IMG/VR virus record: IMGVR_UViG_3300029319_000019
Coordinates: 1-64,000 of that record
Length of the DNA stretch: 64,000 nucleotides
DNA from: a virus
Strand: one strand, 5' to 3'
Shown: in pieces, positions 47,774 through 62,959 of the stretch
Layout of the letters: every line of letters starts with the position of its first letter
Position numbering within the stretch: the first letter of the stretch is position 1
Program-made: the position numbers and the translations under genes
The notes under the pieces: model-generated
Database searches by the model: none
Told to the model about the DNA's origin: nothing
What the model saw: only the letters and a program-made list of their open reading frames with translations

Positions 47774-47788
47774 TGTTTAAATTTTTGT

Positions 47789-47829
47789 AAAAAAAGACCT
47801 ACAGGGGAAACTAGTCCCCTGTGAGTCTT
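47789..47829 (-). terminator. Intrinsic terminator
   Basis: Minus-strand hairpin AAGAC..ACAGGGGA-CTAGTT-TCCCCTGT..GTCTT followed by a U tract. Confidence 0.8.
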
Positions 47830-47842
47830 ATATGTTAAGAGA

Positions 47843-51326: not shown

Positions 51327-51387
51327 AATATAGTACTTTTAAAGTTTTAATAGTGGATGTAAAGTATAACTCCCCAATATCTTAAAG

Positions 51388-51413
51388 TAAGGAAGCGGGG
51401 GCACTAAGCCCCC
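51388..51413 (-). terminator. Terminator-like hairpin after the major capsid gene
   Basis: GGGGGC-TTAGT-GCCCCC followed by a weak pyrimidine tract on the minus strand. Confidence 0.6.
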
Positions 51414-51470
51414 ACGACCTCAACCAAAAACCAATATATAGACTTGCGAATGCACGCTTCTTTAGTCTCT

Positions 51471-52919
51471 TTATGAAGCAGTACACGTAATGTCTAAAGA
51501 CGTATCAAATCTACGTAAGCAGATACCTGCAGTCTTTAACATGTGTACGCTCGCACCGTCAACATCTGACGCTCTAGTATCAGTAGCCGCGAATCCTCGT
51601 GGAACTACAGAACCAGCAACGCACCAACGCATCATCTCACGACCTTTCTTAGAGATCATTGTAAGGTTAGCTTGTCCGTCATAGTTAGACTGGTCAACAA
51701 ATACCATACGGTAAGACTCTAATGAGTAACCAGTAACTGGGTGCTTTTCACGAGCTTGTGCAACAGGACCATGATCAAATAATGGAATCTTAACCACATT
51801 GATCACATGACCATCTACGTGCTCGTAAGTAGTGAAGTAACCAGTTAATCCTAAGTTACGTCCGCTACCTGTGATGAATCTGTTCTCACCACCTACTTTG
51901 AAAGTATTAGATGCGAAGTGATTTTTAAGAGCTTCATCAAACTCTCTTGCTCCACCAGTACCAGTAAATAATGTTACTTGCTTCTGGTTTGCATCCGTCA
52001 TTTGGTAGAATAAATCACCAATGATGTTCTTCAACTTAGTTTCAGTCATAGTTGAATAAGTATCAGTGTTTACGATTTGCTCGAATAAACCTGGGCCTAC
52101 AATTACAGGCTGTCCATTCTCATCCTTCATAAACGTGTTACCGTTTGAATCATAAGTTTTTTGTCCATACCAGTAGTACATCTCACACTCTTCTTTAAAG
52201 TCAAGCATGTGGTTGTACTCTTCATAGTCCATCCAAAGGTTAGTAGTACCACCACCTTTAGTTGGTAAAGTAAAGTTCGCTACGTAATCTTTAGCATGTC
52301 CTGACATGTGGTAAGATTTACGAACTGTAGTAATTTTGTTACGAACTTTTCCTGGAGCTTGCCAGTTAGAAGCGTTACCTCTTGAGAAGTCAACTCCTAC
52401 TGGTGCATACAATTGAGCCCAAAGATCACCTGCAGTAAAACCTGAAGTTAATACTGTAGCTGCTGCTGGGTTTACTAATTGTAATGTATACTCCCATCCT
52501 GAACCTGCCGCATAAGGTGTAGGTTCTTTCATGATACGAGCTAGTTCACCTTTGTTGTTTACTAACACGTATGGAAATACGAATCGTTTGTCAGGGAAAA
52601 CCAATGTAAAAGTTGATCCTCCTTGTCCTAAGTTTGCTCCTGCATTAGTCACAGCCACTGGACGCGTTCTCAATTTGTGAGTAGCCACACGATATTCGTA
52701 CTCTAAACGGTCAATTGATTGAACGTTTCCAGCTCCTTCAGTTAAGAAAGATAGTGGAAAACGCTTATCATCTTTGCCCGCTAGGTGCGTAATAATCGGA
52801 GATAGTTCAGTTGGCTTAGACAGTAATGCATTAGCTAGACTGTTCATGTCTGTCATTTGCGAATCATTATAAAACGTCTTGTGTACGCTAATGTTCGTTC
52901 CGGTCATTTGTCCTGCCAT
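51471..52919 (-). CDS. Major capsid protein
   Basis: 482 aa; TD.N.L, RNKITTVRKSY..SG, GPGLFEQI, LFTGTGG..EF and HP.TG..LESY motifs of crAss-like MCPs; between scaffold and ring genes. Confidence 0.9.
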   Translation of the reverse strand: MAGQMTGTNISVHKTFYNDSQMTDMNSLANALLSKPTELSPIITHLAGKDDKRFPLSFLTEGAGNVQSIDRLEYEYRVATHKLRTRPVAVTNAGANLGQGGSTFTLVFPDKRFVFPYVLVNNKGELARIMKEPTPYAAGSGWEYTLQLVNPAAATVLTSGFTAGDLWAQLYAPVGVDFSRGNASNWQAPGKVRNKITTVRKSYHMSGHAKDYVANFTLPTKGGGTTNLWMDYEEYNHMLDFKEECEMYYWYGQKTYDSNGNTFMKDENGQPVIVGPGLFEQIVNTDTYSTMTETKLKNIIGDLFYQMTDANQKQVTLFTGTGGAREFDEALKNHFASNTFKVGGENRFITGSGRNLGLTGYFTTYEHVDGHVINVVKIPLFDHGPVAQAREKHPVTGYSLESYRMVFVDQSNYDGQANLTMISKKGREMMRWCVAGSVVPRGFAATDTRASDVDGASVHMLKTAGICLRRFDTSLDITCTAS

Positions 52920-57687: not shown

Positions 57688-59679
57688 CTAGTAGTAATTT
57701 TTATCAAACCAATCATTAGATGAGTTATCTTCTAATATTTCTTTTACCTCTGCGTTATACAACTCTCTGGTATGATACATTCCCACCATTAGTGCCATAA
57801 CACGGTCAAAGTTACCTCTGTGATTAAACTTTATTAACTCTTGTAAAAGAGCCAAGTCATATATCTTGTGTAAGTTCAAAGTTATTTTATCTCCATCGTC
57901 TGATCTTACAGCATTTAGCCAGTCTCGTATGTACAACTCTCCTTGTCTTTTTCTAGCCTCTGTTGTATGCATACCATAGTTACGTTTTACATTTCTAGAT
58001 CTTAGATCTTTTTTGTCTAGCATTTCAAACTCTTCTTGTAATCTATGTAACTTTCTATGCTGTCTTGCGTATTGTATAACAGCACCACGATCATTCTCAA
58101 ACCCTATCTTTGCATTATAATAATCAGCTAGCATAAATAAATTTTTATTATATTCGTCTTGCGTATGTGGTCTACCTACATAGCTAGCAACAATTAAATC
58201 ATCAGGCTTTGATATATTATTTATTCTCTTTATCACATACGCAGCACCTAGAGAACTGGAATCTGCTGATTGGTTTTGTCCATACGGGTCATGACAAACT
58301 AGATATAGATTGTGTGGGACTTGTCCCTCTTGATTCCGATATGGACCTTCATACAGAACAATGGCTCCTGTTAAATTATCTTCCTTACGATGAGGAAACC
58401 TTAGAATAGGTCTTGCATCTCCATCTGGTTCAAACTTTATCTTATTATCTTTACCATAGTACAATCTACCAGCTGTACCTATTGCATGCAGCTTGTTTGC
58501 TTTTACTTTGTTATACTGTTCTTGTAGTGATGAAATGTCAAATAGATTTGATGACACTTGTAGTGTAGCTTCACTAGGACATAATGGATGTTCTGCTATA
58601 TATTGATCGTAGGCTTTTGGATCATTAGTGCCTTTCTTTTTATTCCTATTAGTCTGTTCAAACTCTTTAGCTTCTTCTACATTAGAGTTACCATCATCAT
58701 CAATAAATCCTTCTAAGTTCTCAAAGATTGGTACAAAGTATCCACACTCTGTGCCCATAGCACCATCATCCCACTCGTTTGCAAAAGATAGACAGTCATA
58801 TGATTCTGGGTTGTAGAATAATTCTTCCATACCCGCAAAGTCTACACCCTGTGTACCGCCTGTACCAAAAGCAATCATAGTACCTAGCGTCTTACTACCT
58901 TGACGCATTGTTGGCATAGCTACTTCCCAAGCTTTTAGTAGTCCTGGAAATGATCCTGCCTCTTCAAAAAATATAAGTTCACCTGCCTTACCCCTTACTT
59001 TATCTGGATCATCTTTTAGTGACACACCTATAATCTGTGACTTCATACCCATCTCTACAAGTGCACCATTTACATTCTTCTTGTATCCAGATTGCTTGTG
59101 CATTTCTCTATCTCGCAATCTTGGCTGTGTCCATGCTGTATTATCATCTACAAATGACATAATATCCCAAGCTTTAGATAATAAACCATCCCCAATCAAG
59201 TATTCTTTCTGCCCTGCAAATACATAGTTCTTACTATTACGCACATGAAAGTAGTTACGTACCAACATAGCAGCAGCTTTGTAAGAAAATCCTTTACGAC
59301 GTGCTTTTAACACTGTCATGTGCTTGTTTTCTTTCCTACATCTATCTACTGCAGTAAAGTATTTCCAATCTCCGTCGTAAAATGCTGGGAATGTACGCTC
59401 TCTTCGAGCTATAACTGTACCATCTGGTAGTTCTTCATCAACAGATCTGTCAATGGGACAATAGTTAAGATAAAAATAGTGGTTGCCTGTGATTGTTACA
59501 CCGTTATAGGTGTACCCATATAAGCATCTTTTGCGTTCTTCGTCCCAGTATTCAAAGTATGGCTTTGTACCAGGCAGTGCATTAGTATAATATCCGTTCT
59601 TAAGATACTTATTAGCTGCTGGAGCTAATCCTTGCGTTTGTTTAAAAACTTGTTTTTTATATTCTGTAACTCCTGACAT
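57688..59679 (-). CDS. terL: Terminase large subunit
   Basis: Walker A LKARRKGFSY, Walker B LIFFEEAG, GTGG coupling motif, nuclease HDPY and NFDRVMA; exact start uncertain. Confidence 0.95.
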   Translation of the reverse strand: MSGVTEYKKQVFKQTQGLAPAANKYLKNGYYTNALPGTKPYFEYWDEERKRCLYGYTYNGVTITGNHYFYLNYCPIDRSVDEELPDGTVIARRERTFPAFYDGDWKYFTAVDRCRKENKHMTVLKARRKGFSYKAAAMLVRNYFHVRNSKNYVFAGQKEYLIGDGLLSKAWDIMSFVDDNTAWTQPRLRDREMHKQSGYKKNVNGALVEMGMKSQIIGVSLKDDPDKVRGKAGELIFFEEAGSFPGLLKAWEVAMPTMRQGSKTLGTMIAFGTGGTQGVDFAGMEELFYNPESYDCLSFANEWDDGAMGTECGYFVPIFENLEGFIDDDGNSNVEEAKEFEQTNRNKKKGTNDPKAYDQYIAEHPLCPSEATLQVSSNLFDISSLQEQYNKVKANKLHAIGTAGRLYYGKDNKIKFEPDGDARPILRFPHRKEDNLTGAIVLYEGPYRNQEGQVPHNLYLVCHDPYGQNQSADSSSLGAAYVIKRINNISKPDDLIVASYVGRPHTQDEYNKNLFMLADYYNAKIGFENDRGAVIQYARQHRKLHRLQEEFEMLDKKDLRSRNVKRNYGMHTTEARKRQGELYIRDWLNAVRSDDGDKITLNLHKIYDLALLQELIKFNHRGNFDRVMALMVGMYHTRELYNAEVKEILEDNSSNDWFDKNYY

Positions 59680-61513: not shown

Positions 61514-61751
61514 CCTTAAATTGTATTGTTGCTCTATCGTTTTCTACTACTATGGTAGCAGTCTTAGATTGCCTGTTAAATTCATCTATATACTTAGATA
61601 TATCTTCTCTTGTACACAAAAATGACAAGAACACAGACAGCTCTTTTGCTGCTCTGGATGTATTATGCTTTAGATCGTTAGTTTTTTGAGTGTGTTCTAT
61701 CAATTCTAAGTAATCATCCAGGTTTATTGTAACTGTTCCTGGCAACTTCAT
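61485..61751 (-). CDS. Hypothetical protein
   Basis: 88 aa; start overlaps the groES stop (TAATG). Confidence 0.6.
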   Translation of the reverse strand: MKLPGTVTINLDDYLELIEHTQKTNDLKHNTSRAAKELSVFLSFLCTREDISKYIDEFNRQSKTATIVVENDRATIQFKDDQNKVSDS

Positions 61752-62026
61752 TAGAACTTACCTAATACTTGAAACTCATTAACAAACAAATACTGAACTT
61801 CGTCAATATGAATAAGCATTGCCTCTGTGTTTGGATCTACCATGATCTTATCACCCGGCTCACACTGCGTAACTTGCGGTCCTACCGCCAATACTTCTAC
61901 AATATTTGTCTGTAATTGTCTTGCAGTCTCGTCATCAAGAATGATACCTGCATCTGTCTTCTTTTTGTCCGGTCTTGGTACTACTATCCATGCACCAAAC
62001 GGTTGAAATGTAAATTCCTTTGCCAT
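61751..62026 (-). CDS. groES: Co-chaperonin GroES (Cpn10)-like
   Basis: FQPFGAWIVV, mobile loop KKTDAGIIL, EVLAVGP, GDKI and a terminal VLG. Confidence 0.85.
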   Translation of the reverse strand: MAKEFTFQPFGAWIVVPRPDKKKTDAGIILDDETARQLQTNIVEVLAVGPQVTQCEPGDKIMVDPNTEAMLIHIDEVQYLFVNEFQVLGKF

Positions 62027-62051
62027 TGCTATCTATAATTAGTTATAAATG

Positions 62052-62059
62052 CAAAGGTA
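62052..62059 (-). promoter_or_regulatory. Bacteroidota sigma-A -7 element heading the late block
   Basis: TACCTTTG(C) 25 nt upstream of the groES ATG; a TTG lies 21 nt further upstream. Confidence 0.75.
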
Positions 62060-62094
62060 TAATAAAATATTTTACAAATACAAGTGTTTTTTGA

Positions 62095-62372
62095 AGAACT
62101 TCACTATTGGGTACACCACACCCCTAGGAGATTTGCTATTTCAGTTGGAATTTTACCTCTGGCAGTGCTGTCTTTTGGACTACCTAAGGACACTAAAACT
62201 GATGTTAATTCATCACACCTACCTCTGTGTAATGTGCCCTAACCGTTGGCTATATCCGCCTTTTCAGAGACTATTGGAGAAAACTCTAATCCTTATTTAG
62301 GATCTACAATCCAACGTCTGACCCCATAACTACCTTTCGGCCCTCTGGGGTGATACGTATATTACGTGTCTC
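62095..62372 (-). ncRNA. Candidate structured non-coding RNA (~280 nt), family unassigned
   Basis: GC-enriched intergenic segment with at least 6 hand-identified helices, a GAAA tetraloop and an upstream TAnnTTTG element. Confidence 0.55.
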
Positions 62373-62378
62373 TGCGGA

Positions 62379-62386
62379 CAAAAATA
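62379..62386 (-). promoter_or_regulatory. Bacteroidota sigma-A -7 element upstream of the candidate ncRNA
   Basis: TATTTTTG matches TAnnTTTG. Confidence 0.55.
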
Positions 62387-62583
62387 CTAAAAAAAATTTA
62401 ACCACCAAAATTTTTGAGCGTGTGTACCTACTATTGCAAAGACCCTACCTATGTTTCGGAGTTAGAGATACCCCGTGCATAAATATATATAAATTATATG
62501 TATGTTCTATTGCATAGACATTCGCTAGCTCTCGCGTAGTGTGTCGCGGTGATACACTCGTATAATCTAACAACAATTGTGAT

Positions 62584-62832
62584 ATGAATAAGCTAAGCAC
62601 TTATCTTAAAGAAAACGGCTATATGCAAGCCAAAGTAGTAAATGGCCCTAATGGTGACTTCGTTGTTGCAGCTAAAGAGGATAACTCTATTGCAACATTC
62701 CCAGTAGGCAAGAACTCTCAAGGAGAAACAGACATCTTCGCATTCAACTATGTAGTAGGTACGCGTGACGGTATTAGTCAAGTAATTGCTACTGTTAATC
62801 AGTATAGTGAAACAGAGTTCCAAGTATTGTAA
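62584..62832 (+). CDS. Hypothetical early protein
   Basis: 82 aa, preceded by the repeated motif and followed by a terminator. Confidence 0.75.
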   Translation: MNKLSTYLKENGYMQAKVVNGPNGDFVVAAKEDNSIATFPVGKNSQGETDIFAFNYVVGTRDGISQVIATVNQYSETEFQVL

Positions 62833-62869: not shown

Positions 62870-62959
62870 TGTTGTTTACTACAATACGAATAAGATACTT
62901 ATTGTTCTATTGCAAAGACTTTAACTAGATTACGAGAGTGTGCGTTGTAGCGTTCATTC

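Follow-up and report, generated by a model that had tools for sequence, protein, structure and literature searches.

The window analysed here comprises 64 kb of the 80,339-bp IMG/VR record IMGVR_UViG_3300029319_000019. Its large terminase (TerL) shares ~40% identity with gut Crassvirales, 33% with Flavobacterium phage FpV4 and 27% with Cellulophaga phage phi14:2, values that place the source in an uncultured marine lineage of crAss-like phages. This group ranks among the most abundant phages infecting Bacteroidota, both in the gut and in the ocean, and to our knowledge its RNA biology has hardly been explored. In the phage studied here, the head of the late block is organized as follows:

62379–62409, minus strand: predicted promoter of the RNA, with a -33 element TTTG (62409-62406), a 19-nt spacer and the -7 box TATTTTTG (62386-62379)
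62109–62372, minus strand: structured RNA of ~264 nt, in two domains
62059-62052, minus strand: -7 box TACCTTTG of the groES promoter, ~50 nt past the 3′ end of the RNA
61751–62026, minus strand: GroES-like co-chaperonin gene, the first gene of the late block (Pfam Cpn10, E = 1.6e-06; PHROG co-chaperonin GroES, E = 4.7e-11)
57688-59679, minus strand: large terminase, to which the late block runs, with small genes between groES and the terminase

The order RNA, groES, terminase is kept in every locus with enough flanking sequence (41 of 41 metagenome loci), across syntenic loci in which terminase identity falls to ~68% and GroES identity to ~40%. In all loci with enough flank, the RNA is also the first element on the late (virion) strand and lies in sense orientation. 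It occupies the point at which two transcription blocks diverge, beside repeated CTATTGCAAAGAC-type motifs. A CTATTGCAWAGAC motif, which reads TCTTTGCAATAG on the minus strand, occurs three times on the plus strand of the window (62431-62443, 62503-62515 and 62903-62915), in intergenic positions among the plus-strand (early) genes. The GC skew reflects nothing beyond the strand bias of the late block and is uninformative on the replication origin, and PHROG and Pfam analysis of the neighbouring small proteins identified no RNA-related partner.

A search with the GroES protein yielded 45 related viral loci, in which a block matching window positions ~62136-62373 shows 77-99% identity, whereas the sequences on either side diverge or contain insertions. 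A scan for exact matches to a motif (GGATTGTAG, 8-30 nt, TAGAGTTTTCTCC) identified the RNA in at least 120 viral (IMG/VR) contigs and at least 120 marine metagenome contigs, many of them from Tara Oceans. Its matches provided 101 unique copies of full length, which form 66 clusters at 93% identity. Two covariance models were used, one of the whole RNA (R1) and one of the P3-P5 core (R2). R1 detects exactly one full-length copy per locus in 78 of 78 sources, with scores of 120-311 bits, and recovers the RNA of the window at 62107-62374 with 309 bits; in the source genome the RNA is likewise single-copy. Exactly one full-length copy is also found per locus in 31 of 31 loci selected by TerL similarity alone. 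These loci revealed two divergent variants, C and D, which keep the 5′ domain, the closing helix, the long-range helix and the terminal hairpin and exchange the insert for a different one. Copies measure 244-286 nt, and in alignments of related loci conservation ends at both boundaries of the RNA, which surpasses every neighbouring protein in conservation (motifs of 9 and 13 nt are invariant, against ~40% identity in GroES). The structured RNA belongs to the core features of one clade of marine crAss-like phages.

Searches beyond this clade were negative. A distant-mode BLASTN search of GenBank phages with positions 62030-62600 gave no match, and an exact scan for the core motif in 185,579 prokaryote genomes returned 0 matches. 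R1 and R2 produced nothing significant on the full records of cr115_1, FpV4, phi14:2 and crAss001, the best match (16.5 bits, E = 0.05) lying within a coding region, and inspection by eye of the gap at the head of the block in cr115_1 disclosed no homologue. An isolated 31-nt motif match in an unrelated contig (L218) was discarded as chance-level (12.7 bits). Within the window, a search with the invariant 13-mer for antisense targets or further copies returned only chance-level matches.

The proposal of a large structured RNA at this locus came from a sequence-only reading of the window. In single-sequence folding, the minimum free energy of the minus strand is -78.7 kcal/mol, a value equalled by 1 of 200 dinucleotide shuffles (z = -2.65); the plus strand gives z = -2.26. 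The folding energy is thus modestly better than that of shuffled sequences, as the proposal implied, and comparative evidence constitutes the stronger argument. Applied to 23 sequences, RNAalifold predicted 68 pairs, of which 21 show compensatory changes. In the refined structure, three weak RNAalifold helices were replaced by a long-range helix, identified through mutual information and by eye, and by a terminal hairpin; the helices dropped were a GCC/GGU helix paired in 70% of cells, and UGCC/GGUA and UCC/GGG, both about 83% paired and showing one-sided changes only. The refined structure was tested on 77 distinct homologue sequences against shuffled and slid controls:

Pairs in the refined structure: 60
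Cells paired: refined 97.5%, shuffled 85.3%, slid 37-46%
Pairs with compensatory change: refined 31, shuffled 25.8, slid 3-10
Covariation score: refined 0.399, shuffled 0.191 (reached by 0 of 500 shuffles), slid at most 0.091

Covarying homologues, on which the original proposal turned, are therefore abundant, with compensatory changes in 31 of 60 pairs. G-U pairs make up 10.5% of cells and A-C pairs 0.6%, so the fold exists only on the minus strand of the window, where 97.5% of cells are paired against 87.6% on the other strand; the sequence-only reading had favoured a minus-strand RNA on the same grounds. GC content is 0.44 in the RNA of the window, and the family mean is 0.41 in the RNA versus 0.34 in its flanks. 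The sense strand holds ~6-7 stops per frame, its longest stop-free stretch drops to 35 codons in some copies, and length differences among copies are not multiples of three; the region is therefore non-coding. Both termini are base-paired in the refined model, and covariation moves the 3′ end from the position first suggested, 62095, to about 62109-62111. Solid covariation and wide distribution identify a genuine new structured-RNA family, and we consider it very likely that positions 62109-62372 of the minus strand encode a real member of such a previously uncatalogued family. The elements of the fold, all on the minus strand, are as follows:

62267–62372: 5′ domain, the universal core, closed by P1 and bearing two or three arms; kept in variants C and D
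62372-62368 with 62271-62267: P1, GAGAC/GUCUC
62367-62364 with 62358-62355: P2, in some variants only
62351-62346 with 62326-62321: P3, ACCCCA/UGGGGU
62341-62339 with 62334-62332: P3 tip helix, with a GAAA (GNRA) cap in the variant of the window
62315-62310 with 62278-62273: P4, GUUGGA/UCCAAU
62303-62299 with 62293-62289: P5, AUCCU/AGGAU
62279–62309: P4/P5 internal loop, UUGUAG (62309-62304) and UAGAGUUUUC (62288-62279)
62111–62255: 3′ domain, with a closing helix, a long-range helix around a replaceable insert, and a terminal hairpin
62255-62251 with 62115-62111: closing helix, AUAUA (a GUAUAA-type box) with UGUAC (3′ tail)
62246-62243 with 62162-62159: PL, long-range CUAG-type helix, weak in the subfamily of the window, enclosing the insert (here P7-P10)
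62240-62234 with 62193-62187: P7
62230-62227 with 62218-62215: P8
62214-62211 with 62204-62201: P9
62180-62178 with 62172-62170: P10
~62132-62128 with 62124-62120: terminal hairpin

P1 forms in 101 of 101 unique copies through about nine strand combinations, represented by GAGAC/GUCUC, GAAGC/GCUUC, GAGGC/GCCUC, GAGGC/GCUUC, GCAAC/GUUGC, GCAAU/AUUGC, GUAAC/GUUAC, GUAAU/AUUAC, GUGAU/AUCAC and CCAAC/GUUGG. PL covaries in relatives (CUCUAG/CUAGAG, CUUUAG/CUAAAG, AACCUAG/CUAGGUU, CUCUAA/UUAGAG, ACUCG/CGAGU), as does the terminal hairpin (ACGCC/GGCGU, AUCCC/GGGAU, UCUCU/GGAGA). The P4/P5 internal loop is invariant in variants A and B and changes only in C and D, where its 3′ side reads RGUYKUC; it is a candidate binding or tertiary-contact site. 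Candidate alternative pairings around the GUAUAA box, which oppose a helix X to an extension of PL, exceed permutation controls. The sequences of two proposed tertiary pairings (GGUAAC of the P3 loop with AGUUAGG, and a G-run with UCUCC) are invariant across copies. Dimerisation through a kissing loop at a near-palindromic AAUUAA loop was rejected, as this loop varies freely. In two relatives the RNA reaches 309-341 nt owing to an insertion in the P5 arm (L341:4623-4963 and L314:2543-2851), an arm that therefore tolerates expansion.

This fold retains about half of the nine-helix list from which the analysis departed. Compensatory changes among the 77 homologues bear out four of the listed helices: ACCCCA/UGGGGU, the GAAA-capped GCC/GGU, AUCCU/AGGAU and AGGGCAC/GUGUCCU. 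A fifth, AUUACAC/GUGUGAU, stands in its inner part (ACAC/GUGU), while its outer part competes with a covarying GAUG/CAUC hairpin. Three are contradicted: GGUAGU/ACUGCC and GGGUGU/GUACCC are paired in 58% and 62% of cells, and CGUUGG/CCAACG in 41%, the real helix being GUUGGA/UCCAAU, which covaries to AUCGGA/UCCGGU and GUUGGG/CCCAAU. The remaining helix, GAG/CUC, is invariant in most copies and competes with P4; in variants C and D the GGA/UCC of P4, otherwise invariant, changes to GGG/CCC and GAG/CUC is broken, which settles the conflict in favour of P4. The key long-range helices (P1, the closing helix and the CUAG-type helix) were absent from the list.

The RNA starts 6 nt after a Bacteroidota-type TAnnTTTG box, and its promoter is, judging from these elements, of host type (Bacteroidota sigma-A). 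Both this box and the separate -7 box of groES lie where the sequence-only reading had placed them, and its claim that the RNA has a promoter of its own agrees with the conservation of the former, which is found 4-8 nt before P1 in 91 of the 101 unique copies. The promoter of the RNA is the sole intergenic minus-strand match to TTTG-N17-21-TAnnTTTG in the 64-kb window. In about six copies the RNA instead follows an ORF: a small Cys-rich reading frame with the C-terminal sequence ...CENCGS has its stop exactly at P1. Many relatives carry, directly upstream of the RNA, Cys-rich ORFs of 61-85 aa that terminate in C-E-N/K-C-G-S and match no Pfam family (for instance L024:1667-1852, and L033:1483-1740 and 1787-2029), and a degenerate remnant of such an ORF (..FGG stop) overlaps the -33 element at ~62400-62412 of the minus strand of the window.

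No intrinsic terminator was found after the RNA in the window. In ~50 of 78 copies the RNA is followed next by the promoter of groES, some 45 nt further on, and in ~25 of 78 an ORF begins 3-35 nt past the RNA with no promoter in between. In two of the variant C phages, which are GC-richer, the gene of an Amidase_2 lysin (N-acetylmuramoyl-L-alanine amidase) begins 3-5 nt past the RNA, and its end overlaps the groES promoter (L362, 2154-2570; L339, 5687-6196). In other relatives this position is taken by different genes without a promoter, some of them coding for small membrane proteins or small Cys-rich proteins. As predicted from this arrangement, the RNA is co-transcribed with whatever lies downstream. 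A -7-like box of groES itself is present within 90 nt upstream of the gene in 149 of 151 unique loci, and variants C and D have one as well. The late strand of the window has just four intergenic -7 boxes, at 62386, 62059, 57624 and 54122. Strong terminator-like sites, each a hairpin followed by a U-run, lie inside the late block at 47774-47842 and 51327-51470 (minus strand), the latter following a 482-aa gene at 51471-52919. No -7 box follows them, so that transcription of >45 kb of genes requires read-through.

The RNA was compared with known families using the 4227 models of Rfam 15, applied at the gathering threshold to the whole window and at E<=10 to positions 61900-62700. The former search gave no match, and the latter gave two chance-level matches outside the RNA or at its edge (RAGATH-25, 16 bits against a cutoff of 49; RefA1, 13.7 against 94); Rfam 15 likewise gave no match on the RNA in 13 further loci. 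ARAGORN finds 0 tRNA or tmRNA genes in the window, which together with the Rfam result upholds the view that the RNA is no tRNA, tmRNA or RNase P and belongs to no known Rfam family. We found nothing relevant on non-coding RNAs of crAss-like phages in the literature, where an unnamed entry among the >10,000 candidates of Fremin et al. 2023 (PMC10690425) is possible.

Several characterized phage RNAs offer partial likenesses. GOLLD (RF01998) and ROOL (RF03087) are likewise phage-borne, strongly covarying and multi-helix, with no known function and no obvious regulatory platform; they are, however, roughly 500-800 nt long and often tRNA-adjacent, whereas the marine RNA measures ~260 nt, lies in a window without tRNAs, matches no Rfam model and always heads the late block, behind a putative host-type promoter. 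The pRNA of phi29 (RF00044) resembles it in being phage-encoded, with its own promoter and paired ends, beside head and packaging genes. In contrast to phi29, the marine phages possess a conventional large terminase, the RNA has no Rfam match, and no conserved complementary loop pair of the kind used for ring formation stood out on inspection by eye. The tRNA cluster of crAss001 provides a positional parallel: an array of ~14 tRNAs, with ORFs between them, precedes the chaperonin-terminase block at a short distance and shares its strand (L169:51-2272), and in the marine clade the structured RNA heads the corresponding block. Both cases involve predicted co-transcription with ORFs and lack a dedicated terminator, but the marine RNA is single-copy, has no cloverleaf and is not detected by ARAGORN. 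The crAss001 array implies that stable RNAs can sit in such operons without terminators.

The sequence-only reading had left open whether this was an independent phage ncRNA or a long regulatory leader. The evidence supports that pair of alternatives and does not separate them. We tentatively prefer the first, namely that the RNA is the functional product of its own unit, stable and acting in trans, and for this statement as a whole, mechanism included, we hold a confidence that falls slightly short of calling it probable. Host RNA polymerase would make the RNA as the 5′-most part of transcripts reading into the late genes; the RNA would be stabilised by the burial of both ends in helices and trimmed or cut from the longer transcript, like phage tRNAs and other operon-embedded stable phage RNAs, and it might then act in trans as a protein-binding scaffold or decoy through the invariant P4/P5 internal loop. 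The sharp boundaries, the sealed ends, the invariant loop, the separate late-gene promoter and the crAss001 tRNA precedent count towards this reading. Since groES has its own -7 box in nearly all loci, and in variants C and D too, the late genes do not need the RNA as a leader. On the other side stand the missing terminator in the window and the promoterless ORFs at 3-35 nt, which in about a third of the loci turn the RNA into the physical 5′ leader of an mRNA, as well as the fact that it invariably heads, in one and the same orientation, a block of roughly 60 kb with internal terminators and almost no internal promoters, where a cis element would look alike.

The main rival to a trans-acting RNA, which we judge unlikely, is a cis-acting operon leader that either promotes processive antitermination on host polymerase, in the manner of the HK022 put RNAs and the Bacillus EAR element, or serves the protection or timing of late mRNA. 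Under antitermination, polymerases starting at the promoter of the RNA would read through the terminators inside the ~60-kb late block. An element of this kind would be expected where the RNA is found: like put and EAR, it lies in sense orientation near the start of a long operon, single-copy and always first on its strand, with no terminator behind it and with terminators downstream (47774-47842 and 51327-51470) that no later promoter relieves, the only intergenic late-strand boxes being the four listed above. The promoterless ORFs that follow it directly and the alternative pairings of the GUAUAA box fit the same reading. In a system of the put or EAR type, however, all transcription of the operon would pass through the element, whereas here the separate groES promoter, present in essentially all loci (149 of 151), means that most late transcription can start downstream of the RNA and not carry it. 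The RNA also follows an ORF, and not a promoter, in about six loci, and an element bound to polymerase during transcription needs neither sealed ends nor sharp boundaries. It shows no homology to put or EAR and, with about 12 helices in two domains, is far larger; the cis antiterminator RNAs known to us are all much smaller and simpler. Cis action stands as a candidate.

We consider it improbable that the RNA is a riboswitch-like sensor or a self-cleaving or other ribozyme, with the conserved junctions and loop forming a ligand pocket or active site. The multi-way junction closed by P1, with its invariant unpaired nucleotides, and the candidate mutually exclusive pairings (helix X versus the PL extension) would suit such a device; copies without a promoter would need a 5′ end made by cleavage, and small ribozymes do occur in these phages, a Pistol ribozyme (RF02679; 74.7 bits, E = 6.7e-12) being located in a related contig at L048:3860-3926 (plus strand), ~1.6 kb from the RNA and on the opposite strand to it. 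Yet no terminator or start-site-sequestering helix that could act as an expression platform is common to the loci, the downstream neighbour varies or is preceded by its own promoter, no conserved candidate cleavage site was identified, and neither the riboswitch nor the ribozyme models of Rfam 15 (hammerhead, twister, pistol, hatchet and others) match the RNA. That the region is instead a DNA-level element (a replication origin, packaging site or protein-binding array) or an overlooked small protein gene is highly improbable, for its place at the divergence of two transcription blocks beside CTATTGCAAAGAC-type motifs and a plus-strand ORF of 83 codons, which is not conserved, are outweighed by compensatory changes that preserve pairing and not sequence, by the strand-specific pairing and G-U excess, and by the stops and non-triplet length steps of the sense strand.

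The RNA occupies the control point of the late genes, and every member of a marine clade with global distribution carries it. It is possible, if on the unlikely side, that it represents a new functional class, as a large RNA that reprograms host RNA polymerase or as a trans-acting ribonucleoprotein or ribozyme that the whole clade requires. Polymerase reprogramming, if true, would amount to RNA-only processive antitermination in Bacteroidota, heading a ~60-kb crAss-like late operon. The RNA constitutes a well-bounded experimental object, with a predicted promoter, defined ends, a fold supported by covariation and four structural variants, and its study could show how crAss-like phages have host polymerase transcribe a late block of ~60 kb, or bring a new RNA-protein interaction to light. 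The RNA merits a family model in RNA databases, which would end the annotation of these loci as small hypothetical ORFs or empty space. As a separate observation on coding in these phages, the terminase of the gut phage cr115_1 (L166:5001-7046) contains 7 in-frame stops under table 11, consistent with stop-codon reassignment in that crAss lineage, and the late genes of the window itself read open under table 11.
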